DNA of 64,000 nt from a virus (lineage: Duplodnaviria; Caudoviricetes): the IMG/VR virus record IMGVR_UViG_3300013936_000011, positions 32,001 to 96,000 of that record; one strand, written 5' to 3'. The translations under genes were made by a program, and so were the position numbers. Below the pieces are notes generated by a model. The model was given only the letters and a program-made list of their open reading frames with translations. It searched no databases and was not told where the DNA came from. This document shows positions 11,956 through 32,000 of this stretch, piece by piece. Each line of letters opens with the position of its first letter. The first letter of the stretch is position 1.

Positions 11956-12348
11956 ATGAAAGTTAATGAAAAAGCTAAAATTACAGAAGAGGAAATAAAA
12001 GAAGTAGAAGAAATGGATACAGAAGAAATAGCTGTACAAAAAATAATCGATAAATTCAAAAAGCAATATAAAAGAATTTACGAAACAGACGTTGCAGGAG
12101 AAAGAATAATATGGAGACCTATAAAACGTTCTGAATATAGAGAGATAATGGCCTATGAAGATAAAGAATTATCTGACAGAGAAATAGTTTATGTCAGAGA
12201 AGAAATGATGGCTAAGAAAGTTATATTGTATCCTAAAACTGAAGATATAATAGAAGAATTCGCAGGAGTAGCAGAAGTTATAGCTGATGAATGTATGTAC
12301 TATTCAGGATTCATGCCAAATGGAATAAAACCTACAAAACAACTATAA
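11956..12348 (+). CDS. Putative tail assembly chaperone 1
   Basis: 130-aa acidic protein between tube genes and tape-measure locus; IIWRPIKRSEY...VILYP; GGAGG SD. Confidence 0.6.
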   Translation: MKVNEKAKITEEEIKEVEEMDTEEIAVQKIIDKFKKQYKRIYETDVAGERIIWRPIKRSEYREIMAYEDKELSDREIVYVREEMMAKKVILYPKTEDIIEEFAGVAEVIADECMYYSGFMPNGIKPTKQL

Positions 12349-12349
12349 G

Positions 12350-13166: not shown

Positions 13167-16100
13167 ATGGCAAGAAAAAGAAGAGATAAAAAACGTGATC
13201 CTTCAACTCTGGAAAGATTAAGTAAAGTAAGTGTAACTGCTCTGGCTGTTGGTGCTGGAGCAGTTTTTTTAAATCGTAATAAATCTGTTAATAAGTTTTT
13301 GACGGATACAGCCTCTCCTTTACTTAAAAGTACAAAAGGATTCAAAAAAGATTTAATAGGTCGTGATAAGAAAAATCTTATGACTTATTACAGAGCTTAT
13401 CAAAAGAACTTTGGTAAGAACAGATCCAAACTTAGAGATGAAATTAAAAGAAGAAAGATTAGTCCTTTAGCTCTTAACGTAAAGAATTCAAAAGCTGTAC
13501 GTGATGCTTTAGAGCATAAACAATTTGTTTCTAAGACTGGATACAAAGCGTTAGAAAAGAACAAGAGAATTGCTGGTAAGATATTAGCACGACAAGAGCT
13601 TTATAAATATTTCTTACAAAGCGAAAAATACAAACATCTTACTGAAGATAATGCAAGACAAATAGTAAAAAACGTATATGATAAATTAGACGACGAAGCT
13701 ATTGCGAGCAAGATAATAGATGAAATGATACCGAAGACCATGGAAGGTATAGGTATAGAGAAAATAGACTTTAATGAAATATTCACTCTTATCAATGAAG
13801 TTAAAAAGAAAAGTAGTCCAAAGACTAATTCATTAGATCCTTATTTACGAAAGAATAAAGATTTATTCGATAGCTTAAAAGGGCATAGAACTCGTGAAGA
13901 AAGTGCATTTGATAAAGTCGATAAGTTTTTTAAGAAATTCTTAGATGTAGATATAAACTCCGAAAAGTTTATAACAAGTTCTAAGGCTGCAACCATCGGA
14001 GATTTAGAAGATAATTTAGAGAAGTTTGATTTTGAATCTCCTCTGTATGAAAAGATGAATGTTACGGCCAAGAAGCCTTCGACTAGATCTAAACGTAAAG
14101 AGTTTGACTACGATACATTTATCCAAACATTGAAAGATATGTATGGTGAAGAAGACTACAGAAATGTAGTATTGGATCCTTCTATAAGAATAAAAGATGG
14201 AGCCGACGGTCCTGAATTCTTCTCTGTAGAAGAAATGTCAGAGACTATGAAGAATATCAAAAATGGATTTAAAGATACTTTACCTGGTCAAATATTAGCA
14301 AAAGGTTTCGACGATAAACGTGGAATGCCTGACATAGCTATTATACCAGCAGATACTAAATCAGCATTTGCTAGAGCCAGAACATTTGATATAGATGAAG
14401 TAGGTCAAGCATTTAAAGAAGATAGAGAAAGAAATATATCATCAACTCCGTCTTTATATATGGATGGCTATCTATATGATATGAGAGAAAATGCTGACGG
14501 CAAGGTAACTATAGATTTTGATAGCGGTCAAAGAGTTAAAATGGTCAGCGGTTATAAGCGCAGAGTATTAAATGAATTACTAGGTACTACTGATGAATAT
14601 AAACCAGAGGCTTTCCATAGTGAGCTTGCTAAGAAACTTGGATTAGTACAAGATGGTAAGTTCAATCCTATAAATCATCTTATGAGATCACTAACAAAAT
14701 TTGAAGATCCTAACTGGGAATTTAATCAAATTGAATCTATAGAAGGTATTTATTTATCTACTGCATCTCCTGCTGATACTGTAAAAGACATGAGATCTCT
14801 TGGTACAGCTGAGACAGAGATTAGTAAATATAAATCTAGATTGCATAGAAATGAAGAAACAGTGGCTGCATTACTTAATAAGAAGCTTACTGGTATAACA
14901 GATGAAACTATGGAAGCTATCATTGATAGTGGAAATATAACAGAAAAACAAAGAGATATGTTACAAGCTTTGATGGATGGGGACATAACATTTTATATTA
15001 AAGCCGCTGCTTTTGACGAAGCTGGTAACTATAATCTTAAAGATATTAAGAATGATAAGCTTAGAAATATAGTTAATAACTTAATAACTGATACTAAAGC
15101 TACATTAGATTCTACAGAAACATTATATAAAAAGGGTGCAGCGTTACCTATATTAGAACTAGAGTTTGATTCTTCTACTAAACTTAATCTTGAAGGTCAA
15201 TTAAGAATAGAAACAGTTAAAGATATCTTACTTAATAAACAAGGCACAGATGATGCTATGTTTAACTGGATAGACGAATTGAATGTTAATGATATTCCTA
15301 TTACTAGTAAAGACAATGCTATGTTAAAGAGTATGGGTACATTAGCTGTATTCGAAGATAGAACTCATTTAGGTACTATATCTAATTTTACTAGCGCAGT
15401 TAACTCTTTATATGAAAATACTGATTATACCTTAAACACTGAATTAGAGCTTAATCCTCAAATGAAAAATAGATTTGAAAATGATTTAGGCTCCATTAAA
15501 AGTGATTTCGGTTTATTCTCTATAGGATATAATAAAAATCTAAACGAAGAATATGGTACAGACTATACTAAGTATGGATTAATCCATATGTCTAGTGCAT
15601 CTCAAATATTAACATATAATATGAATGAGGGCATTAAGTTTAATGCACAAGCATTAAAAGATACTGTACGTGAACTTAATGCTGGACGTAATGATCCTGA
15701 ACATATAACTGAGCTTACAATAAATCTACAATACTTATTGTCTAGATTAAGCTACAGTGTTGAAGGCGAAGGTCTTGGTTTAAGTGCAAATGATATGGGT
15801 AGTCCCCTTGAAACTGTAAAGAATATAGCACTTAAAAGATTATTGCCTGCAGCCGCTATATATCAAGGTTATAACGTATTAAATTATGAATCACAGAAAT
15901 TGACTGGAACTTCTATACCTGGTGCTTTTGCTAACTCTTTAGCTAACATAGATATAGCAAGTAGAAGATTAATAGAGAATACGCCTTTATACGGTGCATT
16001 AAATTCATTAGCTGAATCTTCTGTAATCCATGAATATTATTTTGGTGATCGTCATTTTAATACAGCTGAAGAAGAGCAAGAATATTATGAAACAGGTTAT

Positions 16101-19100
16101 TCTCCAGTACGTAAAGGTAGATTCTGGAGTTTTGGTTCTGCTTCTGAATACAGAGGTGGAAGTATTACTTATTGGGAACCTAACTATTTAAAGAGAGCTA
16201 ACAGTGATTGGAAAGATGCTGGTATTTATGGAAGTATAGATAATAGATGGGCTCATAGCTGGATACCAACTCCACAACATCCATTAGCTCCTATTAGAAG
16301 ATTACTAGACCCATACTGGCTAGAAAAATATCATTTAAAAGAAAATGACAGACCTTATCCTTTAACTGGTAAAATGTTTACTGAAGGTACAGCCTGGGGT
16401 GCAGTACTTAATCCTACTATTGGACAAATATTAAAACCAGTTAAAATGCTACCTCAAGTTAAACGTCGTTTAGGTAGAGACGGTAGAGATTCTGTAGCTA
16501 TAATAGAAAACTTAAATAACAGAATCAAACAACGTGCTAAAGAAAATGATGACTTAATGGTAGTTAATGGTACAGATATAAGAAATGCTGAGTACGTTCC
16601 ATACGGTAATCCAGATGATGATGAACTTAATGTAACTGTTTCAAATGGACATGCAACTGTACAAGGCATGAATTATATGGACCAAGTTAAGAACATAAGA
16701 GAGTATGAGCCTCCAGATGGAGTGACTTATACAAATGATACTATAGATTATAATAGTGGTACAGTTAGCAGAAAACAACAATACATAGTAAGCAAAGCTG
16801 AAAAATTTGTAGATGAATTGGATAGAAGCAGTTACAATGCTACTAGTATAACTGAAAGTGCTACTAATATAATTAAAAAAGTAAATACAGCAATTAAACG
16901 TAAGAGTAAACATGCTAGACGAATAGATAATTCTACTTTAATGCCAGATAAACGTGAAGGTACTTTTGTATATCGTAACTTAGCAAATGAAAGGCTTAAT
17001 TACGATAATCAATATTACTCAGACCATGAAATTAAAAAGATGGTTGATCGTAGCGTTTATAAAGATTATGCCAGAGATGTTAAGCACAGTATAAAAGACC
17101 TTACTGGTATATATGGATTCCTTGGTGATAAAGCATTTGGTACAGATACATATACTTATCGTTTTGCTAATGCTGGTGAAATGACAAGTTTCAGCCGTGG
17201 ATTCTGGGATTCTAACATTGGTGGTTTAGGTGGAGAATTTATGGAAATCGCTAGACGTTTCTTCCCTAATACTGATAAGTCTAGAGTAAGTTATAATCCA
17301 TTAAGAAATAATATGCCAGATTGGATACCAGATACATATCATTATGGAGACCCTTATGTAGAAATACCTAAAGGCGAAATGAGACTTCCTGGTAAGGGTT
17401 ATGAAGCTATGTATGATTTGCATCCTGACCAATTCGGTAGATATGGTGCATTTGATAGATATAAAATCTTAGCAGATATTGCTCCTAACAGTACTGAATT
17501 TAAGAAATGGAAGAACATAGCTAAGAATACAGTAACGGATCCTAATTTAGTTAAAGAGATGGAAGACATTGGCGTACGTGCATCCAAGATGAGTGGTAAT
17601 CACGAATTCTTTGATTATAAATACATACGCAACAATCTTGAATACAGAAAAGGTAGAGTTCAAGGAATAAGCAATGGCCAAGTCGTATTAGCTGGCGGTG
17701 AAACATTAACATTAGCTGGACTTAACGTAAATGACCAAACTACTGAAGCATTAAAAGAATACTTAAAACCTGGACAAAAGATTACATATCGTACATATAA
17801 AGACAAGAAGATAGATTTAGAAAATACTCAAAGAATAACAGAAGCTGTAGTATATAGTGGCTCATCAAATATAAATGAGAGATTATTAAACGAAGGATAT
17901 GCTGAAAAGAACAAAGAAGATAATTCGGCTCTTGGTATAGCTGGTACACAATCTGGTCATCAAGAAGTTATGGGCGGTCTTCAAGAAGTTATAGCACATG
18001 CTCCTTTACCATACGTACACAGTAAATTCTTAAAAGTAGAAACTCCTCTTGAATCTTATAAGAATGAATTGTATTATGGACATCCATTTAATACATGGGA
18101 CCATCCTATTAAAGGATTCGTAACTCCTGCATTTAATAAAAATAGCGGTAAGAGTCTTGCAGGTGAAGCAGTAGCATTAGGATATGCTTATCTACACTTT
18201 AGTAAAATAGCAGGTAAAACTAGTAGTAAGTTATTAAGTAACGTTAGCACATTTACTATGGCTACATTAAATCCTGCATCATTCCTTGGTATAGCTTTAG
18301 GTTATGCTACTAGATTAAGTAATGGTAAGATAGAAGGTAATGGCGGAAGCTCTTTAACTAATGCACAAAAAGGAGCAGCTATTACTACTGCTATTAGTGC
18401 TGCTAAATATGGTTGGGATAATGCAGATAATCCTCTTAAAGCAGCTACTACATTTGCATTTGCTGGTAGTGTAATATCTCATAACCTAAAAGGCGTAAAT
18501 GAATTTGCAAGAGAAGCATTTAATAAAGAACTTAATTTCTTGCCTGGTGATTTTAAAGCTGGTGCTAAGATAGGAGCTCTCGTAGGTTTAGGAGTGTCAG
18601 CTATAAAGAACTCTCATTTTGACAAAGACAAAATATTCTCAACTAAATTTGTTCCTAAAGAAACAAAGGAAAGATGGGACATAGATGAATATTATGACAG
18701 AATGGAATATGTTAAATATATGGGATTATACAGAAAAGCAGCTAGAAAAGCTGAATTTTTTGAACATTCTAATATAAGAAGCACATTTAAAGAGTTAGAC
18801 AAGAATAAAGAAAAGATAGCTAAGCTTGATAGAAAAGCTACTAAACTTGCAACTAAGAATTCTACTAATGAAAAGATACAAAGCAAATTAACTGAAATAC
18901 AACAACAAAGACAAGCTCTTGAAGAACAAAACAACATGTTCTTTAAAGGTGGCAAATATACACAATCTGCTGTAGCTTATAAGAAGAAAGCAGAATCTAC
19001 ATTATATGGATTAAGCCCTACATCTACTAAAGATGAGTTACTAGCTGCAGTTCCAGATGAATATAAAGATCACTTCCAAGCATTTATGGACGTTACAGAT

Positions 19101-19595
19101 AAACATGAACAAAAACAAATATTAAAATATATGCCAGATTATTTAAAACGTCCATTGCAAATATCATGGGGACAAAAACCTGATAAGATGGAATCTAATT
19201 ACAGATATTTCAAAAGAAAGAAAATGCCTTCTATGTTCTGGAAAGGTTGGAAACCTAATGTGAATCTTAAATACGTTAAGATGAAAACTATTCAAAACGA
19301 AGGTATGATGTTATCTGATTTTGGTTACTATGAATCTGAAAAAGCTAAGCCTATGTATGAGGCAGCTCCTAGTATAGATGATTATAATAATAATTCAGGA
19401 CAATTATATAGAACTAATCTATTAACATCTTTACATGGTATGGGAATAGGACCAATGAATATATCTGTTAAAACTACATCAGCCCCTGGTCTATGGATAT
19501 ACGGTGATGTAAAGAGTACAGTAAGCGATGCTACAAAAGTAGCAGGCTATAAAGTAGCTACTGCAGCTCAAACATTGTCTAGTTTAATATTTTAA
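13167..19595 (+). CDS. Probable tape measure / ejected protein with degenerate thermonuclease (SNase)-like domain
   Basis: 2142 aa immediately after chaperones; basic N-terminus plus hydrophobic helix; Gly/Ala-rich hydrophobic segments near 18150-18600; SNase-like pattern ~17640-17910. Confidence 0.6.
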   Translation: MARKRRDKKRDPSTLERLSKVSVTALAVGAGAVFLNRNKSVNKFLTDTASPLLKSTKGFKKDLIGRDKKNLMTYYRAYQKNFGKNRSKLRDEIKRRKISPLALNVKNSKAVRDALEHKQFVSKTGYKALEKNKRIAGKILARQELYKYFLQSEKYKHLTEDNARQIVKNVYDKLDDEAIASKIIDEMIPKTMEGIGIEKIDFNEIFTLINEVKKKSSPKTNSLDPYLRKNKDLFDSLKGHRTREESAFDKVDKFFKKFLDVDINSEKFITSSKAATIGDLEDNLEKFDFESPLYEKMNVTAKKPSTRSKRKEFDYDTFIQTLKDMYGEEDYRNVVLDPSIRIKDGADGPEFFSVEEMSETMKNIKNGFKDTLPGQILAKGFDDKRGMPDIAIIPADTKSAFARARTFDIDEVGQAFKEDRERNISSTPSLYMDGYLYDMRENADGKVTIDFDSGQRVKMVSGYKRRVLNELLGTTDEYKPEAFHSELAKKLGLVQDGKFNPINHLMRSLTKFEDPNWEFNQIESIEGIYLSTASPADTVKDMRSLGTAETEISKYKSRLHRNEETVAALLNKKLTGITDETMEAIIDSGNITEKQRDMLQALMDGDITFYIKAAAFDEAGNYNLKDIKNDKLRNIVNNLITDTKATLDSTETLYKKGAALPILELEFDSSTKLNLEGQLRIETVKDILLNKQGTDDAMFNWIDELNVNDIPITSKDNAMLKSMGTLAVFEDRTHLGTISNFTSAVNSLYENTDYTLNTELELNPQMKNRFENDLGSIKSDFGLFSIGYNKNLNEEYGTDYTKYGLIHMSSASQILTYNMNEGIKFNAQALKDTVRELNAGRNDPEHITELTINLQYLLSRLSYSVEGEGLGLSANDMGSPLETVKNIALKRLLPAAAIYQGYNVLNYESQKLTGTSIPGAFANSLANIDIASRRLIENTPLYGALNSLAESSVIHEYYFGDRHFNTAEEEQEYYETGYSPVRKGRFWSFGSASEYRGGSITYWEPNYLKRANSDWKDAGIYGSIDNRWAHSWIPTPQHPLAPIRRLLDPYWLEKYHLKENDRPYPLTGKMFTEGTAWGAVLNPTIGQILKPVKMLPQVKRRLGRDGRDSVAIIENLNNRIKQRAKENDDLMVVNGTDIRNAEYVPYGNPDDDELNVTVSNGHATVQGMNYMDQVKNIREYEPPDGVTYTNDTIDYNSGTVSRKQQYIVSKAEKFVDELDRSSYNATSITESATNIIKKVNTAIKRKSKHARRIDNSTLMPDKREGTFVYRNLANERLNYDNQYYSDHEIKKMVDRSVYKDYARDVKHSIKDLTGIYGFLGDKAFGTDTYTYRFANAGEMTSFSRGFWDSNIGGLGGEFMEIARRFFPNTDKSRVSYNPLRNNMPDWIPDTYHYGDPYVEIPKGEMRLPGKGYEAMYDLHPDQFGRYGAFDRYKILADIAPNSTEFKKWKNIAKNTVTDPNLVKEMEDIGVRASKMSGNHEFFDYKYIRNNLEYRKGRVQGISNGQVVLAGGETLTLAGLNVNDQTTEALKEYLKPGQKITYRTYKDKKIDLENTQRITEAVVYSGSSNINERLLNEGYAEKNKEDNSALGIAGTQSGHQEVMGGLQEVIAHAPLPYVHSKFLKVETPLESYKNELYYGHPFNTWDHPIKGFVTPAFNKNSGKSLAGEAVALGYAYLHFSKIAGKTSSKLLSNVSTFTMATLNPASFLGIALGYATRLSNGKIEGNGGSSLTNAQKGAAITTAISAAKYGWDNADNPLKAATTFAFAGSVISHNLKGVNEFAREAFNKELNFLPGDFKAGAKIGALVGLGVSAIKNSHFDKDKIFSTKFVPKETKERWDIDEYYDRMEYVKYMGLYRKAARKAEFFEHSNIRSTFKELDKNKEKIAKLDRKATKLATKNSTNEKIQSKLTEIQQQRQALEEQNNMFFKGGKYTQSAVAYKKKAESTLYGLSPTSTKDELLAAVPDEYKDHFQAFMDVTDKHEQKQILKYMPDYLKRPLQISWGQKPDKMESNYRYFKRKKMPSMFWKGWKPNVNLKYVKMKTIQNEGMMLSDFGYYESEKAKPMYEAAPSIDDYNNNSGQLYRTNLLTSLHGMGIGPMNISVKTTSAPGLWIYGDVKSTVSDATKVAGYKVATAAQTLSSLIF

Positions 19596-19620: not shown

Positions 19621-19621
19621 C

Positions 19622-19654: not shown

Positions 19655-22600
19655 ATGGCGAATTTTAATAAAAATATTACGATATATGATAATAAATATA
19701 GTGTCGTTAAAGGTAGAAGAGCTGATGGTACTTTTAGAAGTGGCAGTGAGACATTAGCAGACAGACAGAAGAGAGTAAGTACTAAGTTTGCTGATGACAT
19801 AACAGCTATTCAAGACTTTGTTGATACTTTTGCCAATCAATCTAAAGTCATCTTTAGAGATGATAATACATTGGTTCTTAAAACTTCTCATAAGCCATTT
19901 GATAGAGTAGAAGAAAGCGAAGCTGCTAAGAAAGCTTTAGATATATTAAATACTAATAAATTTTTCAATACTATCACAAACAAAACAAGTCCTAGTAACG
20001 TAACTCTTAAATATCATAATTTAGCTAATATAAATACTACTGCTTCTTATGATAATATGAGTCATGTATTTGATAAATATCAAAACATAATAAAGAGTAA
20101 TGGTACTATAGTCGGTTACGACCTTGAAACACTTGGTGGTATGTCTGATGGTATATGGAATCCATTAGGTATAACTGAATTCGGTATTAATAAACAACAC
20201 ATAGTTAATGGTAAAGTAGCTAAAACAACTAGTGAGAATATCATGCTATCTGGTACTGTAAATCATACAGCTGAGTTAAATAAAATCAGAGCCGTACTTA
20301 TGAGTCCTAATGGTGCTAAGAAATTAGCAGAAGATCCTCAATATAGAGGTCTACTTGTTTCTGCAAAACGTTATAGTATGTACGGTCATAAAGATACTAA
20401 GATACATTTTGATGGAAAGAAAGGCTACGGAGTAATCGACTCATTCGTCGGTGAAAAAGGAGAAGCTTGGGGTAATTTAGAACAGATTACTGCAGGTGTT
20501 AATAAATTTATAAATATAGAAAAACAAGCTTCACAAGCCATAGATGAAGCTTCAGGATTAAGAAAAGATGTTAAAACATCTATTGATTATATATTCGATA
20601 TAATGAAGACAGGAAACGATCAACACGGTTTAGTAGTAGGTCATAATATACGTGGATTCGATAATGCTGCACTTAATCAATATGTAAAGAAACTTTATAA
20701 CAGTGATAAAGCTGCACAGAAATATATAACTAGTAAAATGGGTATCCTAGGAATAAATACTCCAGGATTCCATTTAGGACCTATTGCACAAGCCGATTCA
20801 TTAAACTTTTCTAGGGTAGTAAATAACAAGAATTATATGGGTGCATTACTTGATGTATCTGATAGAGGACGTCAAATACTTGCTCAAGCTGGACGTGGAA
20901 TTAATAAGCAAGAAAATATAGGAGCAGTATTCTTCCCTCACTTATTCGAAGGTGCTATGGCGCATAGTGCAGGTAACGATACAGCCGTAGTTAATGCGTT
21001 CTTTACTCATAGATTTACAGAAGATTATTTAAAGAAGATAGGTATCGATCAAGATGCTATCGGTACTTTTAAAGGCAAAACTCTTATAGAAGCTATGAAT
21101 GATATGATGGGCTCTTTCGATAATGCTGTCGATATTAAAGCTAATCGTCAACAAATATTTATGGCTAATAAAACTATGAATGGTAGCTTTGGCGGTAAGA
21201 AAGTATTTAACTTTACACGAGATAGCCAAGGAAATATAATAACTTCTACTGGTCATTTTATTAATCCAAATGGAGGTATAGAATATAATCCTGTACATGG
21301 TAAACAAATAGGTGTAGTTAGAAATCAACCATATACTATAGTTAATTATGGTTCCGTAAACACATCTCAATATTCAGGGCAATTAGCTAACTTAGTACCT
21401 GAGTTTGCAACGGATGAAGCGTATTATTTAAATCTAGAACAAGTAGTTGGTGATAAATATAAATCAAGAACAAATCCTACACAGACTACTATGTTGTTCT
21501 CTACTAAAGAAGAAATGGAAGGCTTTATAGATTCATACTTGACTCCATTTGCTGAATCTACTACAGGTGGAGGATATAAATATCTTGGTAACAGAAAAGT
21601 AGCTGAATCATACGCTAAACAATATATGCTTACTGATAAAGGTTTAGAATTTAATCAACAACAATGGAATAGTATGTTTGAAGCTGAACAAATCAAAGGT
21701 GCTTTAAATTCTAATTTCGAAAGAAGATACGAAAAGAAAGCTGCTGAAAACTTCTTATTTGGAGATAAGTCTGCTAAAAGAATTGGTGAGTCATTAGACT
21801 TTATAGAATACTTGAACAAAAAGAATTTATCTGCAATGACTGCTGATGATTTAGGACGTATCTATTACAATAAATACAGCGGAATGAAAGTAGGAAATGT
21901 AGAAATTACTAAGAACCTAGCCGATGAAATTAGAGAGAACATCAAAGATACATTCGGATTCCATCCTAGAGACGAAAACGGTAAGCCTCTTGAAAAGAAA
22001 ATATTATTAGATGCTACTGCAGATAATGCTATAGCTTCATTCGAACATGTTAAAGAACAAGAGAAATATTATAGAAATGCGTTAAACACAGTTTTTAAAG
22101 CTCACAATATAAATCCTAGTCAACATGGTAGTTATGGAGTAACTATAGCTAAAAGTGGTCAAGTCATGGCTGCAATTAATAATGACTTTATTACTCTTAA
22201 TGATGCATTAAGTGTTCCAGTAGCTAATTCTGTAGGAGAATTTATGGATTTATCTGAAAAAGGCGTACGTAACTTAGCATTAAATGCTGATACTCAACTT
22301 ATGCCTAAAGCTTTAGTAGATAATATGTATGAATTCAAATTAAGTAAAGATTTTTATTTCAATAAGAAAGCTAGTAATATTAATGGCCTTATGTCACCTA
22401 AAGAGTATCAAAACATAATTCAATATAGTCTTGATAGTTCTGACCCTGGCATGAACTTTATAGATAAGCTTATTAAAATACAAACAGGTGCTACACGTCA
22501 ATTAACAGAGACAGAAAGAATACAATCTGGTAGACAAGTATTTTATCAATTTGTAAATGACGAGTTATCTAAAGATAAAGTACTTAGCAAAAATCAACAT

Positions 22601-25600
22601 ATAATAGAACTAGGTAGTTATGTACAAAAGAAAGACTATAACCTACGTCATGCTTTATCATATTTAGAACAAGGTATTTCCGAAGTTCGTGAAGCAAATC
22701 CAGAAGCTGGAGTTATTAGATCAACTGCAAAACGTGGAATAAAAACTAATTATTTAATGAGTAAATACAGAAATAATCTAACTCCTGAAGCGATGGCAGA
22801 AACCATGAAAGGTATAGGTAAAACCGTAGATGTATCTTCAGCAAAGGGTACAGAGAGAAAGAAAATGGTTGAAAAACTAGTCAACAGCTTTATCATAGAT
22901 GAAGGCACTTTCTCTAGAGATTTAAAAGCATTGCATGGTTCAAACACTGACGCCATAGAAGATACTATGTTAGCATATCGTACATTAAAGAAACAATATG
23001 GAACATTTGTTAATGACTTAATAGATGCTGCAGGTAACGTAGATATGAATTTAGTATTTAATGAAAAGTCTGGCAGACTATTTGTTCAAAAAGGAGAAAA
23101 GATGGTCGACTTAGATAATATAGCTAGAATTATAAGCGACCAAGGTGCTTTATATGGTAAGAGTGGAAGTCAAAGACTTGCTATACACCATGTACTAGAA
23201 TATGATCAAAGAGCGAAGGCTTTAAAATATAGAACTAATTTAGATGACCATTTCGGCGGAATGAAGACTTTAGTTAAAAGAATTGATAAGTTAGCTGAAA
23301 AGGGCGAAGTAGACCTTGACTCATTCAGAAGAGCTGTTGGTAAATTACAAGTTGATCTTAATGAAGCTCCTGTTTATAAATATAATTATGGTTCTTTATT
23401 ATTAGCTAATAGCCCAGTTGATATAAGAGGAGTAGATCCATTATATCCTGAACTATTTAAAGAAGATGGAGAATTCCATAGCATTATAACTCGTATGAGT
23501 AATAACGATAAATTCAATGTTGATGATTTACAAAACATAATGGAAAGAAGAATACCAGAGTCTTTAGAGCCTGGTAAACTTGATCCTATGCAAAGATCAT
23601 TAATGTCTCCAGACGTAGTCCCTATACTACAAGAGTTCAATAGAGCTACTACTAATAACTCTGTTGTCGATAGAATATTAAAACATATAAATGATACTGG
23701 TAAAGAAACTAAAGAGACTAAAGGTATAAAAGTAGTCAATGAATTGTATATTCCACAAGGCTCTGGAGGATTTGATAACTATGGTCGTCCAGTATCAGTA
23801 TCTGCTTTTAATAGAAACTGGATAAAAGCGAACACTATAGAAGAAGCTAGTAAGACATATGAAAATCTATTAATAGGTGCTAGAGTTATAGATACTAAAC
23901 AAGTACATGCAAACATATATAAAAATGTTAAAGAAGTCGGTAATCTAGCAGGTGACTTTGCAATAAGACAATTAAATATGTCAAACCAAAACATATCTCA
24001 ATTAGTTAAATACAAGAGAAATTCAGTAATTGATTCTATTATAAATAAATATTCAAACGATCCAGATAGAAAATATATAGCAGATGATGTTGAACAAATA
24101 ATGTCTGAAGTGGAACATATAGTAAGAGGTTCTGTATATGAACAAGGTAAACTTATGGACCCTGAATTATTTGAAAGACTTATCGGAGATAATCCTCAAG
24201 ACGTTAGAAAGATAAGTTATAACTTAAATGCTATTCCTGCTATAGAAGCTATGCTTGAAAGGGAAGATCCTGAGAAATTAATCAAGACTAAAATCCCTCA
24301 AATGAGGGAGATGTTTGGTGAATTAAAGAGAGACGAAAATGGACATTACAGATATGTTAAGACTCCTGGTACTATTATTAAACGTGGAGAAACTATATTC
24401 CCTTATGAAGCATTCGGCGATATAGAAAAGAGATTCGGTTCTAAATTCCCAGAGAGTGTATTAAGTCTGAAGTTTAGAAACAAAGAAGGTATTGAATTAT
24501 CTGAAGCCGAAATATCAAAAATTATAAATGATACTTTTGGTAAACAGGATATTGATATAAAAGATGTAATCAATCTATTTTCAAATGGCGATGAGTTTAC
24601 TGCAGCATATGAAGTAGCGCATATTTCTCAACAAGAATTACCTAAGACTTTCTCTAACAGTGCTGAAAAATCTATGACTCGTATACCATATGCAAAAACT
24701 GGTTCGCACGATCCGAGAATAAGAAAGATATTAACTGATACTGAAAATGATCATTGGGTTAAAAATATTGTATTGAGAGATGAGACTCTTGATGCTTGGT
24801 ATCATGATTTAGAAAAAGCTTATAAAGATGGTGGCAAGACAGCAAAAGATATTCTTAAACAAAATGGTTTTGATACTATACAAGATTTAAAAGAAGCTGC
24901 TAAACGCGAAAGATTACTTTATCGTGATTTTGTATTTGGTGAAAATAGTATATTTGGCATGGTATCTGTAATAGCTAATGATAATGTTACAGGCCATGAA
25001 AATATGGGTCATCAAATGTCTAGTGCATTAGGTGAAGCTATAAGACTTACTGGTAAATACACAGCTAAACCTGGTGCTAGCAATACTGAACAATGGGAAT
25101 CAGGTATAAATAAAGTAGCTGAAATAATAGCTTCCGATCCTAAGAAATTTGGCTTTATAAGAGAAATGGATAGTAGCAAAGGTGTAAATGAAGCTAAGAC
25201 ACTTGATATTTCTCAAAACCTATCATTGCTATTTAGTACAAATACATATGATAAAAATAAAAAAGGCATTGAAGTATTAGACTCTGAAAAGATAGTTAAT
25301 TTATTCAGAGAGATAGATAAAACTATACTTAAGAATGCTCCAGAAGAAGATAGACTAGTTCATACTAATCTTGAAGGTGTAGATGAATTAGTTGGAGCTG
25401 TTAAGACAATAACTGTAGACGGCAAGAGACATGCTATTGGTTCTGTAGGTGTTACTTCTACTGCATTTGCTGAAGATTCAGAAGTGCAATCTGGTGTCAG
25501 TCAAGAATATCTTGATGCTAAAAAAGCTTTAAGACAATACACTCATATGTTGGATCAAGTAAAGGCTATTAAGCCTGAAGATCTTACAGAACAACATATT

Positions 25601-28600
25601 AACTTGCTTAAGATTCTACCAGAGAGAATAGAAGAAATACGTAACGAAATAGATGCTATGTCTGACGGTGCTGCATTTATGAAAATAGATGATCAGCTTA
25701 GAAACATACTTAGTAACTCAGCTTTAAACAGTACTACTGAAAGACGTTTAAGTAATTTAATTGCAAACAGTAGTGATCCTTATGGGTATACTAAATTGAT
25801 AGAAGAAGCTTCTGATAAGTTAATAGCTCGTAATAAAGATGGAGAATTTGAAATAAATAAAAAGTATAAAACAGATAATGTCAATAGACCATGGCTAGAA
25901 GATGTTAAACAACAAATTACTTTCAATCCATTAGAAGAAGACGAGTTAACTGAAAAGATGTTAAAGGAAGAAGAATACAGACATCTTGAGCCTATATACA
26001 ATGAAGTAGTCAGAAAACGTGGTATGAAACTAGGAACTGATAGCGCCGAATTATTCTATCAAGGTAATATCGCTTATGCTGGTGCTAAATTTAATGCTGG
26101 CGGAAATGTTGATTTACAGCCTTTATTAGACAAAGGAGTTGAAGTTGTACCTGCAGAAAAATATGTAGGTAATCTTGGCAGAGCTTCAGCTGGTCAATTT
26201 GTAAGCTCATATGCTGACAAAACTATATTATTAGACTTAGGTGAAAACTATGCTAATATGTCTGAAACAGGAAACAGATACATAGCAGTACCTGGATTAG
26301 GTAATGTAGTGAACAGTCAAGAAATTAAAAGAGATTGGCAAAAGACTGCAGGCGCTTTAGCTAATACATGGCAAGAATGGTCTAACCTAGGATTTAATGA
26401 TACTGAAGAAGGTCTTAGATTAGTTAGCAGAATGGATGACTTATACGATAAATTAAATACTGAAAGTCAACAAATAGTTAAGAAAGGTAACGTATTTGCA
26501 GAGAAAGCGAAAGTAAGAGTTAATGCTCCTGCACAACGTCTTAAAATACAAGCTACTCTTGGCGAATCAGAACTTCACGATCCATTAATAGATAAGATAA
26601 GAGCAAATACTCCTGATAATTATAAGGTTGATGAAGACTGGTTCAGAGACAATGCGACAATATTAGGTAAATCAGTATCTGAATGGGAAAAACATGGTCC
26701 TAATGGTCCTAGCTTATATTATAACTACAGATTATCATCAATGTCAGACTTCCAAAATAAAGGTTATTTTGATTATGATTTCATGAGACAAATGGGATTC
26801 ACTAAGAAAGATGCTAGTGGAAACATGGTACCTATTACTGATAAAACTGAGTTACGAAGTGAAATGATAAACTATTTAAAAACTCATGGTACTATGGATA
26901 TCTCAGACCGTTATCCTAATATATATGATACATCTGCACTTACTAACTATACATTCTTAGACACAACATTAGCTGATAATGCTACAGCTATAGCAGGACA
27001 TACTTTATCTAATCTTAATGGTGACCTTGACGGTGATTCAGATTCAACAGTTAAAATAGCAAAGAATAACGTAAACTATCTTTTATATAATAAGCATAAA
27101 GAAGATTCTATGGCACAAATGAAAGCTGATTTAAAAGCTCAAAACATAGATATAGATTCTTTAGACAAAGATATGGTTGAAGAAAACTTACGTAGAAATA
27201 CTATTCAATCAATGAAGCAAAATAATGTCAGAGGTACTGCTGAAGAACTTGGCGAAGCTTATGATTTCTTTAGAGGAAAAGAATTAGAATCTATTAGAGT
27301 CGCTGTAGATAATGCTAAAGTTGTAAGAGAAAACGTAGCAGAGACACTTGCTAAAGATAGTGGTAGAGCTTATAAATCTATGGCTTTATCAGTAGATGGT
27401 AAAAACTTGTTAGCAGAAGTAGAAGGTGGACGTTCATCTCTTGGTAGATTAAGAACGTTTAATAGAAGAGAAAACGTTGGAGCTGGAGAATTAGTTAAAA
27501 GCGATAACGAATTAAAAGATTATTTCGCAGAAGCTGTAAATGTATTAGATAAACAACCTGATTTATTTAAAGGCGAAAAGTTTAAATACGTTGAAGGCAT
27601 GAGAGAAATAGGAGATAAAGAATCTGCTAAGACTGTTGTTTCATTTGGTAATAACCAAAGAGAAGCTTTAGATGAAATGCTTTACATATTACAAAAGAGT
27701 GGTAGTCAGATGGCTGACCAAGCAGAAACTGCAGCACTTGGAAGAATTCAACAAAATAAATATGTCGAATCACTATTATTCAAAGGTTCTAAAGATGCCA
27801 TAGGTTTGGTTGATGCTCAATTATATGCTATGAAGCAAGCATCTGATAATTACTTTGCTCAAGCAGAAAAAGATACTGAACGTAGATTAAGATTATCTGG
27901 TATGAGCGAAAGTGAAATCAGAAATAGTCCTGAACTAAAATCTATTGCATTAAAAAGAGGAAATATAACTTTATTCTCTGGCGGTTCAGAACAAGATATT
28001 ATATCAGCTAAAAAGCTTAAAATGTACGCTGGTGATGATCGTTTCATGTCATTTGGTGGAACAATGCAATCAATAAGAAGTGGTAGAGCTACACAAGAAA
28101 CTCGTGAAGACTTCTTAGATTGGTTCGAACGTTACGGTAAATTCTCTACTGTAGCTAGTCAATTTGATACATGGGCAGATGATGGTACATTAAGTGAATC
28201 TATGATTAATAAAGCTTCTTCTTATATTGATAAATATGAAAAAGAAGGCGTTAAAGATGCTGCTGAAAAAGGTAAAGCTATGTATCTTGCTGAACACTAT
28301 TATGATACTATAGATACATTAAATAAGAATAATGAAAGCTTTAGAGCAGATGCTAACTTATTTGCTGTATTCGGTAGAAATGGTGGTAGCGTAGAAAGAT
28401 TAGTTAATGTAGAAGGAGCTTCTGGTGAGAGTCACACAGCTTTAATACAAAGTTTATTAAGTGGCCAAGATGTATCTTATAAAGACCATGACTTTGAAAA
28501 ACAAGGCACTAGAGTTATGGCAGATAGATTAAAGAATATAAATAACTTTAAGAACATTACTAAAGCTAGTAGCGAAACATTAGAACATATAGTTGAAGGT

Positions 28601-29002
28601 GGCAAAGATAGTTTATTAAGTAGCCCCGCTTCTATAATAGGATTTAGTGCTATCGGTTTAGCTATAGGTGTAGCTGCTGCAGGATATGCAGGTGGACCAC
28701 TTAAGAAGAGTAAAGCTGTTCAAGACGAACAACAACAAAGACAACAAACAGACGATAGAATGACTGTCCCTGAATTTTTTGACAATCAAGGAGGCTTTGT
28801 TACAGGAAATTCACAACAGGGCTATATTATCAATATCAATGCTAATACTAAGAAAGGTGAACGTCATATGAAGAGAGCTATGAAAGAAGCTGTATCAGCT
28901 TCTGTTGGTGGCGCAGTAAGTATAAATATGAATTTCAAAAGTAATAGTAGTGGTGGATGGTCAGATAAAGATATCGAAAAAATAATTAATAATTATATGT
29001 AA
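19655..29002 (+). CDS. Giant virion protein: DEDDh 3'-5' exonuclease plus single-chain two-barrel (DxDGD) RNA polymerase, hydrophobic C-terminus
   Basis: Start revised to ATG 19655 (AGGTG SD 19641-19645). Exo motifs YDLET (20117), GHNIRGFD (20639), HSAGND (20963). RNAP motifs YEQG (24137), K-x7-K (24644/24668), VIANDNVTGHENMG (24968), RYP (26909), NGDLDGD (27017-27037). Confidence 0.8.
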   Translation: MANFNKNITIYDNKYSVVKGRRADGTFRSGSETLADRQKRVSTKFADDITAIQDFVDTFANQSKVIFRDDNTLVLKTSHKPFDRVEESEAAKKALDILNTNKFFNTITNKTSPSNVTLKYHNLANINTTASYDNMSHVFDKYQNIIKSNGTIVGYDLETLGGMSDGIWNPLGITEFGINKQHIVNGKVAKTTSENIMLSGTVNHTAELNKIRAVLMSPNGAKKLAEDPQYRGLLVSAKRYSMYGHKDTKIHFDGKKGYGVIDSFVGEKGEAWGNLEQITAGVNKFINIEKQASQAIDEASGLRKDVKTSIDYIFDIMKTGNDQHGLVVGHNIRGFDNAALNQYVKKLYNSDKAAQKYITSKMGILGINTPGFHLGPIAQADSLNFSRVVNNKNYMGALLDVSDRGRQILAQAGRGINKQENIGAVFFPHLFEGAMAHSAGNDTAVVNAFFTHRFTEDYLKKIGIDQDAIGTFKGKTLIEAMNDMMGSFDNAVDIKANRQQIFMANKTMNGSFGGKKVFNFTRDSQGNIITSTGHFINPNGGIEYNPVHGKQIGVVRNQPYTIVNYGSVNTSQYSGQLANLVPEFATDEAYYLNLEQVVGDKYKSRTNPTQTTMLFSTKEEMEGFIDSYLTPFAESTTGGGYKYLGNRKVAESYAKQYMLTDKGLEFNQQQWNSMFEAEQIKGALNSNFERRYEKKAAENFLFGDKSAKRIGESLDFIEYLNKKNLSAMTADDLGRIYYNKYSGMKVGNVEITKNLADEIRENIKDTFGFHPRDENGKPLEKKILLDATADNAIASFEHVKEQEKYYRNALNTVFKAHNINPSQHGSYGVTIAKSGQVMAAINNDFITLNDALSVPVANSVGEFMDLSEKGVRNLALNADTQLMPKALVDNMYEFKLSKDFYFNKKASNINGLMSPKEYQNIIQYSLDSSDPGMNFIDKLIKIQTGATRQLTETERIQSGRQVFYQFVNDELSKDKVLSKNQHIIELGSYVQKKDYNLRHALSYLEQGISEVREANPEAGVIRSTAKRGIKTNYLMSKYRNNLTPEAMAETMKGIGKTVDVSSAKGTERKKMVEKLVNSFIIDEGTFSRDLKALHGSNTDAIEDTMLAYRTLKKQYGTFVNDLIDAAGNVDMNLVFNEKSGRLFVQKGEKMVDLDNIARIISDQGALYGKSGSQRLAIHHVLEYDQRAKALKYRTNLDDHFGGMKTLVKRIDKLAEKGEVDLDSFRRAVGKLQVDLNEAPVYKYNYGSLLLANSPVDIRGVDPLYPELFKEDGEFHSIITRMSNNDKFNVDDLQNIMERRIPESLEPGKLDPMQRSLMSPDVVPILQEFNRATTNNSVVDRILKHINDTGKETKETKGIKVVNELYIPQGSGGFDNYGRPVSVSAFNRNWIKANTIEEASKTYENLLIGARVIDTKQVHANIYKNVKEVGNLAGDFAIRQLNMSNQNISQLVKYKRNSVIDSIINKYSNDPDRKYIADDVEQIMSEVEHIVRGSVYEQGKLMDPELFERLIGDNPQDVRKISYNLNAIPAIEAMLEREDPEKLIKTKIPQMREMFGELKRDENGHYRYVKTPGTIIKRGETIFPYEAFGDIEKRFGSKFPESVLSLKFRNKEGIELSEAEISKIINDTFGKQDIDIKDVINLFSNGDEFTAAYEVAHISQQELPKTFSNSAEKSMTRIPYAKTGSHDPRIRKILTDTENDHWVKNIVLRDETLDAWYHDLEKAYKDGGKTAKDILKQNGFDTIQDLKEAAKRERLLYRDFVFGENSIFGMVSVIANDNVTGHENMGHQMSSALGEAIRLTGKYTAKPGASNTEQWESGINKVAEIIASDPKKFGFIREMDSSKGVNEAKTLDISQNLSLLFSTNTYDKNKKGIEVLDSEKIVNLFREIDKTILKNAPEEDRLVHTNLEGVDELVGAVKTITVDGKRHAIGSVGVTSTAFAEDSEVQSGVSQEYLDAKKALRQYTHMLDQVKAIKPEDLTEQHINLLKILPERIEEIRNEIDAMSDGAAFMKIDDQLRNILSNSALNSTTERRLSNLIANSSDPYGYTKLIEEASDKLIARNKDGEFEINKKYKTDNVNRPWLEDVKQQITFNPLEEDELTEKMLKEEEYRHLEPIYNEVVRKRGMKLGTDSAELFYQGNIAYAGAKFNAGGNVDLQPLLDKGVEVVPAEKYVGNLGRASAGQFVSSYADKTILLDLGENYANMSETGNRYIAVPGLGNVVNSQEIKRDWQKTAGALANTWQEWSNLGFNDTEEGLRLVSRMDDLYDKLNTESQQIVKKGNVFAEKAKVRVNAPAQRLKIQATLGESELHDPLIDKIRANTPDNYKVDEDWFRDNATILGKSVSEWEKHGPNGPSLYYNYRLSSMSDFQNKGYFDYDFMRQMGFTKKDASGNMVPITDKTELRSEMINYLKTHGTMDISDRYPNIYDTSALTNYTFLDTTLADNATAIAGHTLSNLNGDLDGDSDSTVKIAKNNVNYLLYNKHKEDSMAQMKADLKAQNIDIDSLDKDMVEENLRRNTIQSMKQNNVRGTAEELGEAYDFFRGKELESIRVAVDNAKVVRENVAETLAKDSGRAYKSMALSVDGKNLLAEVEGGRSSLGRLRTFNRRENVGAGELVKSDNELKDYFAEAVNVLDKQPDLFKGEKFKYVEGMREIGDKESAKTVVSFGNNQREALDEMLYILQKSGSQMADQAETAALGRIQQNKYVESLLFKGSKDAIGLVDAQLYAMKQASDNYFAQAEKDTERRLRLSGMSESEIRNSPELKSIALKRGNITLFSGGSEQDIISAKKLKMYAGDDRFMSFGGTMQSIRSGRATQETREDFLDWFERYGKFSTVASQFDTWADDGTLSESMINKASSYIDKYEKEGVKDAAEKGKAMYLAEHYYDTIDTLNKNNESFRADANLFAVFGRNGGSVERLVNVEGASGESHTALIQSLLSGQDVSYKDHDFEKQGTRVMADRLKNINNFKNITKASSETLEHIVEGGKDSLLSSPASIIGFSAIGLAIGVAAAGYAGGPLKKSKAVQDEQQQRQQTDDRMTVPEFFDNQGGFVTGNSQQGYIININANTKKGERHMKRAMKEAVSASVGGAVSINMNFKSNSSGGWSDKDIEKIINNYM

Positions 29003-29086: not shown

Positions 29087-32000
29087 ATGGCTAATAATCT
29101 TTCAGATATAAGAGATAAATGGGCAGAGATGAAAGTCTCTAAAGTAGAAAATACTGATATGGATATAGAAGATTTTGTCCCTAATATCTACGAAATGATA
29201 AAAGAAGATTGTATTACTGAATATCTAGGGTCTATATCTGATTCTTTAAATAAAGGCAAAGATGATTATAAGAACGTAGCTTATTATTGCGAAGCTCCTT
29301 ACAGTGAAACTCTAGGCTATGATGATAAAGAAAAGGTCTGGGTATTAAGTGTAGACGGAATAGAATATAGTAAAAATATGCTTGATATGGGTTCTATAGA
29401 TGGTGATACATATGGTTTTAGTTTTTCTGATATAGATGATGGTGGCAAAAGCGCAACTATAGGTTCTAAAACATATAAAGGATTTGAAGATTATATTAAA
29501 TCTATGAACTGCGTTAGTAGTGGTGGCGACGACAGAGGCGGTATTAAAGTCAGAGCCGCAGGTGTAGACTGTGCCGAAATCCCTCACTACGAAGCTGTGG
29601 TTGTTTACAATAAAGATACAGAACTAGAAGCATTGACATGGGACCAAATAGAAGGTTTAGCTGTATCTAAAAAAGCTGAGATACAATATGCTCCTTATCT
29701 TATAAATAAGAATAAGAGTGATGATCCTGATAAATGGACTCTTTCAGAAAGAGATAAATCACACTCTGTTTTATTCTACAAAAACAAACAAGACGGAATT
29801 ACTACTTATCTAGAAGTAGTTAAAAAAGATGCTTCTTATTTATTTAGCTCATCTAGTGATTATGCTGGCGGTACTCCTATGTTAGTTGTAGGAGCTGGTA
29901 AATCTTGGGGCAAGGATACAGTATTAGATGGTTATAAAGCTCAAAGAAGAATCAAAGAGCTTTTAATAGATAAAAAGAGCAGCATACAAGATATGATACT
30001 AATACTTGATGCTCACACTACTACTGCAGTTAGAACAGCTCCTACATATACATGTTATACCTCTTTATATTATTTCCCTGAAACAGTAAAAAATATAATA
30101 CAAAGTTGGATTGATAAACAAGATGGTAGACCATTAAGCAGATTAACTTATTCTCCATTCGGTACAGATAAATATGGACGTTTACTAGGAACACTATACG
30201 TTAAGATGAAAATGAACGGAGAATCTGTATGGATTAATGTATCTAAATATGTTCAAGCAGGAACAAACCTTACTGAACCAGATCCTGATTTTAGTGGTTC
30301 TCCAGAATTAGAAGGTATTTACAACGGACTAAGTAACGATGCATTTAAAATAGGAAGTTATAATAACTCTTATAGATTTATAGATGATAGTAATGTTAGC
30401 GGAAATGAATCATTTGAAAAAATGATCAAACTTCATGAATCTCTTACTGGTTTAGAATGGAACGCAGAAAAAGAATGTACTGTATTGCTTGGTGATAGCT
30501 TCTTCTTAATTCCTCCACAAAGTATTCGTAATGTAAGTAACATAGATTATACAAAAGTACCACTATTAAGAAGTAAAGGTACCATGGTTAAGAATCAAGC
30601 TAACCGTGAACAAGTACTCGAAATGGACGTATTCTTCTATGGTGAAAATGGTATCAACGGTATTCCGTATAAAGCAGAAACGCCTAATGGTACAGAAGTT
30701 ACTTACTATATGAATGGTCTAAGAGCATTATTTGCTCAGTTCAGAATATGCCCTTTCTTACCTATTCATAATTATTATATCAATAATGTATTAGGAATAG
30801 AAGCTGTAACAATGGTAGGCATCTCACTTGATACGGTTGAAGGATTTCCTAAATTGCTTAAAGCTACTCTTACTCTTCGTGAGTTTAACTACAGAGTTTA
30901 TATGCCAGATTTACCTATACAATATGTAAATAGTGATACTGGTAAAATACAAGACTTTGAACCTATATTTGCCAAATGTTTCGAATGGGAAGTTTACAGA
31001 TATTATTATCAAAGATGTATTATGCACGGAGAAGAAATAAGTAAGTATACTTACAATACATATGAATACGGTGAATACTATTATTCTTATAAGAATGTCT
31101 TACAACGTGCAAATTTAACTTCTCAAAGTATAGAGTTTTATGTGCCAGATGATAATTGGTTAACTAAAGCTTTACAATGCAAAAAAGATAAGGATAGATA
31201 TGGTCAAATGATATCTTCAGTATCATTAAATGATGATGAATCAAGTTATGTAAATGAAATAGCTGGCGATGATCCATTAGTAGATAACGATACTTTTAAA
31301 AGCAAACTTAAAACATTGCTTAAGGATAGTAAGGTTCAACTTAAAAATAAATATAATACTTCAGATAGTGTAGTTGGTGTCAACACCAATGATATATACC
31401 GTACTGATGATTATGCTACAACATGGTCTAAATCAAGAACTCATGTTATGGATGTTAAACCTAGCGATCTTAAAACTATATTCAAGAACAGACTAAATGT
31501 ATTATTTAACTTAGGATGGGTTAATGATGTTACATTAGATGAAGGATTAAATAGTGCTAATACAGCAGTCGTATGGACTTTTAATATCAAGCTTGATACT
31601 AGTAAAGTTAGTTTAGATAATATCAGAGAATATGTCAGAGACTTATCAACTAAGACAGATGAAGGTGCTTCATCAGCTAACTTCTTTAAAGATGGATGCG
31701 GTAAATATATCGTAACAGCTCAATATGATGAAAACAGTAAGTTTGTCGGCGTATCAGCTGCTTATGATGCAGGACTTGCCGCTATAATGGCCGCAGGTTC
31801 AGGAAGTAATAAGCCATCTGAAGTTAGCACAACTTCTGAAGTATTCAATTATGCAAACTATACAGATCCTAAAGCTATGAAGTTTGTTCCTTACATAAAA
31901 GATTTAAATGGTAACAGTGTAAGCATAGATCTAGATTTATTACATGTAGTAACACAAAACACTTTTACAGAAATGTATTTAAAAGCTCAAGATGGTTTTG

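Follow-up and report, generated by a model that had tools for sequence, protein, structure and literature searches.

A predicted DnaQ-like DEDDh exonuclease domain joined to a giant tail-module RNA polymerase in uncultured jumbo phages

The window analyzed here is the whole 64,000-nucleotide (nt) stretch at positions 32,001 to 96,000 of the IMG/VR virus record IMGVR_UViG_3300013936_000011 (Duplodnaviria; Caudoviricetes), a 146.6-kb contig estimated to be 56% complete. In this window, three giant open reading frames (ORFs) encoding 2142, 3115 and 2791 amino acids (aa) occur in succession, and the second of them (19655..29002, according to the ORF list and its translation) is the subject of this report. 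The gene and all of its elements described below lie on the plus strand. Its 3115-aa product, here called the exonuclease-RNAP, comprises in this order an N-terminal region, a DEDDh exonuclease domain, about 800 aa without an assigned role, an RNA polymerase (RNAP) core with a putative beta-like and a beta'-like part, a predicted transmembrane (TM) helix and a conserved C-terminal tail. An initial annotation, made from the sequence, had read at this locus a DEDDh exonuclease fused N-terminally to a putative virion RNAP. The modeled fold and the family-wide conservation support its exonuclease identity: aa ~143–495 very probably constitute a divergent DnaQ-like DEDDh 3′-5′ exonuclease domain with a complete, family-conserved two-metal active site (D156, E158, D336, H437 and D442).

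Residues are counted in this report from the ATG at 19655. This codon is the likelier start, rather than the in-frame GTG at 19643 from which the initial annotation counted (+4), because close homologues are annotated from MANFNK, homologues of 2894–3143 aa starting at the same MA..N motif, and because a Shine-Dalgarno-like GAAGGTAGG run lies about 13 nt 5′ of the ATG. The residues D160, E162, D340, H441 and D446 of that annotation are, respectively, the five active-site residues named above. The three motifs to which they belong were all found in a single frame and in the canonical order (nt 20111–20980). ExoI is VGYDLET (aa 153–159; 20111..20131), in which D156, E158 and T159 are invariant in 35 of 35 homologues. 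ExoII is VVGHNIRGFD (aa 327–336; 20633..20662), with N331 and D336 invariant in the same 35; the residue preceding N331 is H, Q or Y among the homologues, and the model has a strand followed by a helix N-terminus there. ExoIII is AHSAGND (aa 436–442; 20960..20980), whose likewise invariant H437 and D442 are in the Hx4D arrangement of the ‘h’ subtype. Two further elements accompany them. One is the strand beta2 motif PLGITEF (20162..20182; P170, T174 and E175 invariant), the equivalent of KIIEIG in the epsilon subunit of DNA polymerase III. The other is QADSLNF (20789..20809), which carries the invariant D381 and resembles the D(T/S)L motif that we take to be typical of strand beta5 in the DnaQ family. 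The motifs DxE(T), NxxxxD and Hx4D are shared with epsilon in the same order, as is the conserved E in strand beta2.

A long insert between ExoI and ExoII had also been noticed at the outset, and the spacing bears this out: E158 and D336 are 178 residues apart, compared with 89 in E. coli epsilon, presuming D12/E14/D103 as the catalytic numbering of the latter. The domain as a whole is about 150 residues longer than epsilon, the excess being divided between two insertions, with the bulk at about aa 200–305. The latter is a family-specific alpha/beta insertion that, in the secondary structure of the model, extends from strand beta3 to the helix before beta4 (20252..20569, approximate). Since it carries the invariant residues R239 and Y243 in the segment SAKRYSMYG (20360..20386), it is probably functional and perhaps has a role in substrate binding.

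The conservation of the active site was seen across a wide range of divergence. D156, E158, D336, H437 and D442 are invariant in all 35 full-length homologues, including the acidic residues on which the initial annotation relied, at 23–98% identity in the domain; the distant family members are only 23–34% identical to the query there. Among the 353 columns of the domain, 14 are invariant, namely the five catalytic residues and T159, G161, P170, T174, E175, R239, Y243, N331 and D381. The hypergeometric probability for the catalytic residues to fall among the invariant columns is 4.5e-8, a figure that ignores phylogeny, and the coincidence is well outside what chance would give. Such invariance amid drift to about 25% identity is what would be expected of selection on catalysis and hence of a working active site. 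It bears directly on one alternative, in which the domain is an enzymatically irrelevant scaffold for folding, tail packaging or ejection whose motifs were kept by descent. The domain is indeed very divergent in sequence, and the N- and C-terminal regions of the virion RNAP (vRNAP) of phage N4 are established to serve injection and encapsidation, not catalysis. However, a mere scaffold would hardly keep the catalytic residues together with N331, T159, E175 and D381 while the remainder drifted so far, and we consider this alternative very improbable.

The fold of the domain was examined by modeling. The homologues were gathered by a word-indexed search with aa 100–520 and by an exhaustive phmmer search against 1.84 billion representatives, and the resulting alignment (A1) was used to build an AlphaFold (AF2) model of aa 101–520 (m91d11060c704; predicted local distance difference test score (pLDDT) 87.9, predicted template modeling score 0.86). 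According to this model and its structural comparison, the DnaQ-like domain spans aa 143–495 (20081..21139), and the core that aligns with epsilon spans aa 151–479 (nt 20105–21091; model residues 51..379). When the model was compared with 48,161 PDB chains by VIA-align, the best 50 matches were all DEDD/DnaQ-like exonucleases. The best of them was DNA polymerase III epsilon (1j53_A; Z 12.3, root-mean-square deviation 2.8, 171 of 174 residues aligned), and further matches were the DinG exonuclease domain (Z 12.2), a TREX1 homologue (10.8), ExoI (10.6), CAF1 (10.6), Cas2-DEDDh (10.4) and RNase T (9.8). A shape search of the ESM Atlas gave PF00929 RNase_T clusters in nine of ten matches, the third match being a PF21762 DEDDh_C cluster. 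In BFVD, the model matched DEDDh and RNase H-like viral proteins, including phage DEDDh proteins; two long viral proteins were found at E 2.6e-7 and 1.3e-5, the second labeled ‘YprB ribonuclease H-like domain-containing protein, fragment’. The RNase H-like fold presupposed by the initial annotation is consequently found by three comparisons (VIA-align, Atlas and BFVD), and it is shared with the epsilon/PF00929-type DEDDh exonucleases in general (ExoX, RNase T, Orn, TREX1 and the DinG N-terminal domain). Unlike those enzymes, which are replisome subunits or small stand-alone proteins, the present domain resides in a 3115-aa protein of a virion module. Two long viral UniProt proteins in BFVD, A0A7R7G2L5 and A0A8S5RKK9, one of them bearing the automatic YprB annotation, show the exonuclease fold including the insertions (TM score by query 0.45–0.47 over about 390 columns), and they may be unrecognized members of the exonuclease-RNAP family.

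At the sequence level the picture is less favorable, and several blanks have to be set against the assignment. No Pfam family was found for the exonuclease domain alone at E ≤ 10. A six-frame search of the whole 146.6-kb contig with PF00929 likewise gave nothing at E ≤ 10, the same profile being positive in 13 of 14 control genomes, and phmmer found no match among PDB sequences for either the domain or the complete protein. Pfam and PHROGs also gave no match for either the whole protein or the domain, and only two chance matches were obtained at E ≤ 10 when the family profile was compared with the PDB. The profile search against DEDDh/RNase_T proposed in the initial annotation thus failed to bear it out, in that the Pfam RNase_T model does not recognize the domain. 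Profile-profile comparison was more informative: when hhalign compared a domain-only profile with five aligned E. coli DEDDh exonucleases (DnaQ, Orn, SbcB, RNase T and ExoX), it produced two local matches in collinear order, one pairing ExoI with ExoI (E 0.0052) and the other ExoIII with ExoIII (E 0.0045). With the full-length family profile against E. coli DnaQ, ExoI alone was aligned, at negligible probability. Foldseek of the model against the PDB returned only Hsp70 ATPase domains at a TM score of about 0.14, a failure that is probably due to the insertions breaking the 3Di alignment. Feature searches of the Atlas provided a sub-threshold DnaQ-like lead for the exonuclease domain and nothing usable for aa 480–1350. 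Membership in the DnaQ-like superfamily rests on the predicted fold and the motifs rather than on a Pfam model.

The C-terminal two thirds of the protein were analyzed in the same manner. The beta′-like RNAP module was modeled from alignment A2 over aa 1950–2950 (25502..28504; AF2 model m3e444c8ac070, pLDDT 84). Among the 50 PDB matches listed by Foldseek, only the largest subunits of multisubunit RNAPs were present (probability about 1, E from 1.4e-4): yeast and human Pol I A190, bacterial beta′, and the beta′-like subunits of the non-virion RNAPs (nvRNAPs) of phages AR9 and phiKZ. A second look by VIA-align gave beta′ chains at Z 7.2–8.3 (250–460 residues aligned), the plant RNA polymerase ZmRDR2 at Z 8.3 and gp62 of phage P74-26 at Z 8.2 (233 residues); these Z values are middling, and the ‘wide’ mode on the 1001-residue model was dominated by helical-hairpin matches. 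Two motifs were located in the module. The nucleotide-selectivity motif DRYPNIY (RxPx[L/I]; aa 2418–2424; 26906..26926) has R2419 and P2421 invariant in A2, with Y in the place of H in the RxPxLH of RNAPs, and the catalytic acidic motif NGDLDGD (DxDGD; aa 2455–2461; 27017..27037) has D2457, D2459, G2460 and D2461 invariant in 26 of 26 sequences. The combination of RxPxLH and DxDGD marks multisubunit RNAPs, while the archaeal DNA polymerase PolD has PHT and NxDGD (PMC7708050). Upstream of the module, LPKTFSNSAEK (aa 1662–1672; 24638..24670) contains two lysines nearly invariant in A2, and their K-x7-K spacing (aa 1664–1672) equals that of the basic-motif lysines K838/K846 of T. thermophilus beta (PMC7708050); it fits the basic motif of a candidate beta-like barrel. 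Taken with the beta′-like fold model, the invariant RxP and DxDGD make the RNAP identity of the C-terminal core well supported, and the RNAP label of the initial annotation can be retained.

The same motifs speak to the possibility that the protein is instead a two-barrel DNA polymerase with DnaQ-type proofreading, a phage analogue of PolD. An N-terminal exonuclease followed by a polymerase is a layout typical of replicative DNA polymerases, and a search of the 146.6-kb contig turned up no DNA polymerase of family A or B. On the other hand, the selectivity motif is RxP and not PHT, the acidic motif is DxDGD and not NxDGD, the gene is located in a tail module beside the hub gene, and a conventional DNA polymerase may lie in the part of the genome missing from the incomplete contig. 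The DNA-polymerase reading is disfavored by this evidence and seems to us scarcely credible.

Two elements are found downstream of the RNAP core. A Kyte-Doolittle scan predicts a single hydrophobic, TM-like helix (aa ~2991–3014; 28634..28696), whose G/A-rich hydrophobic consensus is kept in the family. The protein then ends in a conserved tail (GYIINI ... INMN ... D.DIE..NNY; 28772..28999), represented by nearly invariant columns at the end of A2, which we infer to be an assembly or anchoring element.

The relationship between the two enzymatic parts was examined by looking for homologues that contain only one of them. All homologues found through either the exonuclease or the RNAP region are about 2900–3180 aa in length and have both domains. 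A search via the RNAP gave eleven IMG/VR loci. An unbroken ORF that matches the exonuclease in full is present in nine of them; a contig end truncates another, and the last (L019) keeps the complete gene in a single frame that contains TGA codons, which makes ten of eleven with both domains. Shorter forms of the family were represented only by contig-end fragments, the short matches either beginning at the family N-terminus or sitting on very short contigs, so polymerases lacking the exonuclease were ruled out as a separate form. No stand-alone copy of the exonuclease domain was found in the exhaustive phmmer search of the 1.84 billion representatives. The two domains were therefore together in every detectable homologue, as the initial annotation had proposed to check. 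Its remark that the fusion is unusual also stands: tblastn of aa 1–1000, the exonuclease domain and the RNAP core against 50,697 GenBank phage records gave nothing even at E 0.1, so that no cultured phage there has a detectable relative of either part, and the literature searched does not describe a phage RNAP that carries an exonuclease. The combination of a DEDDh exonuclease with a giant tail-associated RNAP is without precedent in the searchable papers and phage genomes, both parts being of known kinds.

The L019 locus (IMGVR_UViG_3300045988_160394; 263 kb, with direct terminal repeats) showed a peculiarity of its own. The gene and the next giant gene are in one frame interrupted by TGA, in-frame TGA being present at locus positions 4757, 6689, 11060, 17033, 17651, 19706, 21371 and 21887, and the exonuclease-RNAP gene terminates with TAA at 13073. 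This pattern suggests that the jumbo phage in question translates TGA as a sense codon.

The obligate fusion is relevant to two alternative roles of the exonuclease. In one of them, transcript proofreading or backtrack rescue, the exonuclease would trim the 3′ end of the RNA that the attached polymerase is making, removing nucleotides that are misincorporated or backtracked, in the manner of Gre/TFIIS-assisted cleavage in cellular RNAPs and of nsp14 ExoN for the RNA-dependent RNA polymerase (RdRp) of nidoviruses. Nidovirus nsp14 ExoN is a DEDDh 3′-5′ exonuclease tied to the viral RdRp and, to our knowledge, the only well-known precedent for the proofreading of RNA synthesis; as a separate protein of an RNA virus that works with a palm-type RNA-dependent polymerase, its likeness to the exonuclease-RNAP is conceptual only. 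Besides the obligate fusion, this role is favored by the presence of a polymerase and a DEDDh 3′-5′ exonuclease on one chain, the classical layout established for family A, B and C DNA polymerases, and by RNA-acting DEDDh enzymes among the structural neighbors (CAF1, 3′hExo, RNase T and PARN). However, two-barrel RNAPs already cleave backtracked RNA in their own active site, the few early transcripts of a virion polymerase hardly need high fidelity, and the exonuclease lies about 1200 residues from the nearest RNAP motif. We regard proofreading as unlikely, and its more specific form, in which the domain is a dedicated site for editing nascent RNA and the protein the first two-barrel DNA-dependent RNAP with a separate DnaQ-type editing domain, as slightly more doubtful still. 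If true, such editing would give a DNA virus its own equivalent of nidovirus ExoN and would parallel the pairing of the PolD core with its DP1 exonuclease.

In the other, host take-over or counter-defense, the injected domain would act apart from transcription and destroy host or defense nucleic acids where entry takes place; the targets could be single-stranded DNA or RNA products of defense systems, host transcripts attacked at their 3′ ends, or host DNA with nicks. Virion-delivered anti-defense proteins are well known in phages, early protection is a heavy investment of jumbo phages, and T4 DexA, Cap18 and Cas2-DEDDh are among the structural matches. Nevertheless, one or few molecules per virion would be poorly suited to bulk degradation, and the strict linkage to the polymerase, with no stand-alone copy seen, points to a function linked with the polymerase or with entry. 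Counter-defense is in our judgment not very likely.

Whether the protein is carried in the virion can be approached from the genes around it. The tail sheath gene is located at 4333–7299 of the window, and two tail assembly chaperone genes (11956..13159, plus strand) match ORF143 and ORF144, ‘tail chaperonin’, of Bacillus phage 0305phi8-36 by BLASTP. They are followed by giant gene A (2142 aa; 13167..19595, plus strand), a homologue of 0305phi8-36 gp145, which is a virion protein by mass spectrometry. Beyond the exonuclease-RNAP gene lies giant gene C (2791 aa; 29087..37462, plus strand), a homologue of the 0305phi8-36 baseplate hub/endolysin gp147 (phrog_20474, E 6.8e-171; tblastn and BLASTP), and then the baseplate wedge genes (38390–39739) and a fiber gene (51685–53079). 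The gene order is accordingly chaperones and gp145 homologue, exonuclease-RNAP, hub, gpJ-like and baseplate genes. This is collinear with the tail module gp143–gp151 of 0305phi8-36, a jumbo myovirus, in which gp145 corresponds to gene A, gp147 to gene C and gp151 to the gpJ-like baseplate protein. The tail cassette is the same both in a relative of 75% identity and in the most distant relative (L002 and L008); in a third lineage (L009) the upstream neighbor differs and the linkage to the hub gene is kept. The relatives reach 242–265 kb at 92–100% completeness, with about 30% G+C, and on this account the source phages are jumbo phages. The tail sheath and baseplate genes rule out a crAss- or N4-type podovirus, and the source phage is a contractile-tailed jumbo myophage.

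Three side observations were made in this module. Directly 3′ of the gene A stop codon and 5′ of the exonuclease-RNAP gene, an inverted repeat (AGCCATG ... CATGGCT) with a T-rich run behind it occurs at 19596–19622; it could be a terminator or an attenuator between the two giant genes. Gene C is also homologous to proteins of Moorella phage MTATph1 and of Bacillus jumbo phages, the sole cultured relatives found for the tail module. Finally, two ORFs after the sheath gene (7342–10832) match PHROG 9206, ‘major head protein’; ORF141 of 0305phi8-36, a ‘major head protein’ in the same module, is noted as ‘tail tube paralog’, and the PHROG 9206 label may be misleading for these two ORFs.

The exonuclease-RNAP occupies the slot of 0305phi8-36 gp146, a 2537-aa ‘hypothetical tape measure’ verified as a virion protein by mass spectrometry. 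The shared slot speaks for a virion location, but the correspondence is positional: gp146 has no similarity to the exonuclease-RNAP and contains neither the DxDGD nor the DEDDh motifs, so it was ruled out as a homologue, and because it is not homologous, its mass-spectrometry evidence transfers by position only. The YonO-like RNAP of 0305phi8-36 is encoded elsewhere than in the tail cassette (PMC7824862). Considering the tail-module position and the synteny, we judge it likely that the exonuclease-RNAP is a tail-internal virion protein of a jumbo myophage of about 250–265 kb, delivered into the cell at infection; the vRNAP of Thermus phage P23-45, fused to a tape measure protein, is a precedent (PMC10770324). 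The label ‘putative virion RNAP’ in the initial annotation is thereby sustained in its RNAP half by fold and motifs, while its virion half is an extrapolation from the neighborhood of the gene.

To consider what such a protein might do on delivery, the left end of the contig, outside the window, is informative. The left 15 kb form a minus-strand gene block, which holds a 716-aa ORF with GSDFDGDDL (G000:C1:10910-13060, minus strand). A 234-aa ORF (G000:C1:8404-9108, minus strand) ends with VEDFDGDEF, and a 566-aa ORF is located between the two. These motifs make the 716-aa and 234-aa ORFs candidates for another two-barrel RNAP, of the non-virion kind, encoded in the early block. The segment G000:C1:1405-7953 (the window begins only at 32001) contains nine hairpins with a perfect GC stem and a GACA loop, all on the plus strand; GACA-loop hairpins in the opposite orientation numbered zero, the mean across all 256 loops being 1.1 per 4-mer loop. 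Read in the direction of the minus-strand genes, every hairpin has behind it a conserved motif of about 20 nt, approximately GAATACTTTACA-N-TTTTGTGA. Each is located upstream of a minus-strand gene and is without a T-run, and these features, together with the conserved motif that follows, rule out intrinsic terminators. The promoters of N4 vRNAP are template-strand hairpins, and the GACA hairpins look like promoter elements that recall them.

Taking these features together, we tentatively prefer a role in which the exonuclease resects the end of the entering genome in the 3′-5′ direction and exposes a single-stranded template with hairpin promoters; it is a possibility held with limited confidence. 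In this mechanism, the C-terminal hydrophobic end would anchor the protein at the DNA-entry channel, and the N-terminal exonuclease would meet the 3′ end that arrives first as the linear genome enters, resecting that strand 3′ to 5′. The complementary strand would be left single-stranded, so that the hairpin promoter elements of the outward-pointing early genes could fold, and the attached polymerase could then act on them with no need of host gyrase or SSB. The recessed 3′ end could be refilled later, with the information preserved. In a terminally redundant genome, resecting the two ends would also give complementary 5′ overhangs and thereby allow circularization. The preference has two grounds: by geometric reasoning, a 3′-5′ exonuclease working from the left end would digest the minus strand and therefore render single-stranded exactly the template strand of the hairpin-bearing genes, and the recessed end can be refilled.

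Several points weigh against resection. The structural neighbors of the exonuclease model include both DNA and RNA exonucleases, and the substrate is not readable from the fold. The domain is separated by about 1200 residues from the first RNAP motifs, and its cooperation with the polymerase part is conjectural. The user of the hairpin elements may be either of the two polymerases. In addition, only 56% of the genome is covered by the contig, whose ends do not coincide with the physical termini, so the hairpin block may not be terminal and the left end may not be the one that enters first. The genome with direct terminal repeats (DTRs), G004, was considered as a guide to the physical termini and dropped, as a DTR in an assembly does not reveal the first-entering end.

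Comparison with the known virion RNAPs places these features in context. One of the closest known systems is gp96 of Thermus phage P23-45, a two-barrel virion RNAP fused to the tape measure protein (TMP) (PMC10770324). Both are giant tail-module proteins that combine a two-barrel RNAP with a hydrophobic, membrane-active C-terminal part, and in both cases a second, non-virion two-barrel RNAP is found among the early genes, as a candidate in the present genome; the nvRNAP gp62 of P74-26, a relative of P23-45, is among the better structural matches of our RNAP model. However, P23-45 is a siphovirus with the RNAP at the TMP N-terminus, whereas the present protein belongs to a contractile-tailed jumbo phage and has its RNAP, closest to multisubunit beta′, in the C-terminal two thirds; an exonuclease or nuclease is mentioned zero times in the P23-45 paper (PMC10770324). 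N4 gp50 (about 3500 aa) resembles the exonuclease-RNAP as a giant injected polymerase accompanied by a second early-gene polymerase and by short GC-rich hairpins upstream of early genes, but it is a T7-like single-subunit enzyme from a podovirus capsid, has no exonuclease, and depends on host gyrase and SSB to extrude the hairpins. Gp66 of phi14:2, a crAss-like phage, is likewise a single-chain two-barrel RNAP within a giant virion protein. It is the cargo protein of a podovirus, the family profile found no PDB match beyond the two chance ones, and an exonuclease is not reported for it in the searchable papers.

Virion RNAPs start phage transcription before any phage protein is made, and among the known ones (those of N4, crAss-like phages, P23-45 and phiKZ-like phages) none has been described with a nuclease. 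For the annotation of giant phage proteins, it is relevant that a DnaQ-type domain invisible to Pfam can still be recognized by its motifs and fold. For the biology of these phages, the obligate exonuclease-RNAP fusion across a clade of uncultured jumbo phages of about 250 kb suggests a new step at DNA entry, for which the making of a single-stranded hairpin template, the editing of RNA and the disarming of the host are the candidates. Template-making, if true, would account for the use of hairpin promoters independently of host gyrase or SSB.

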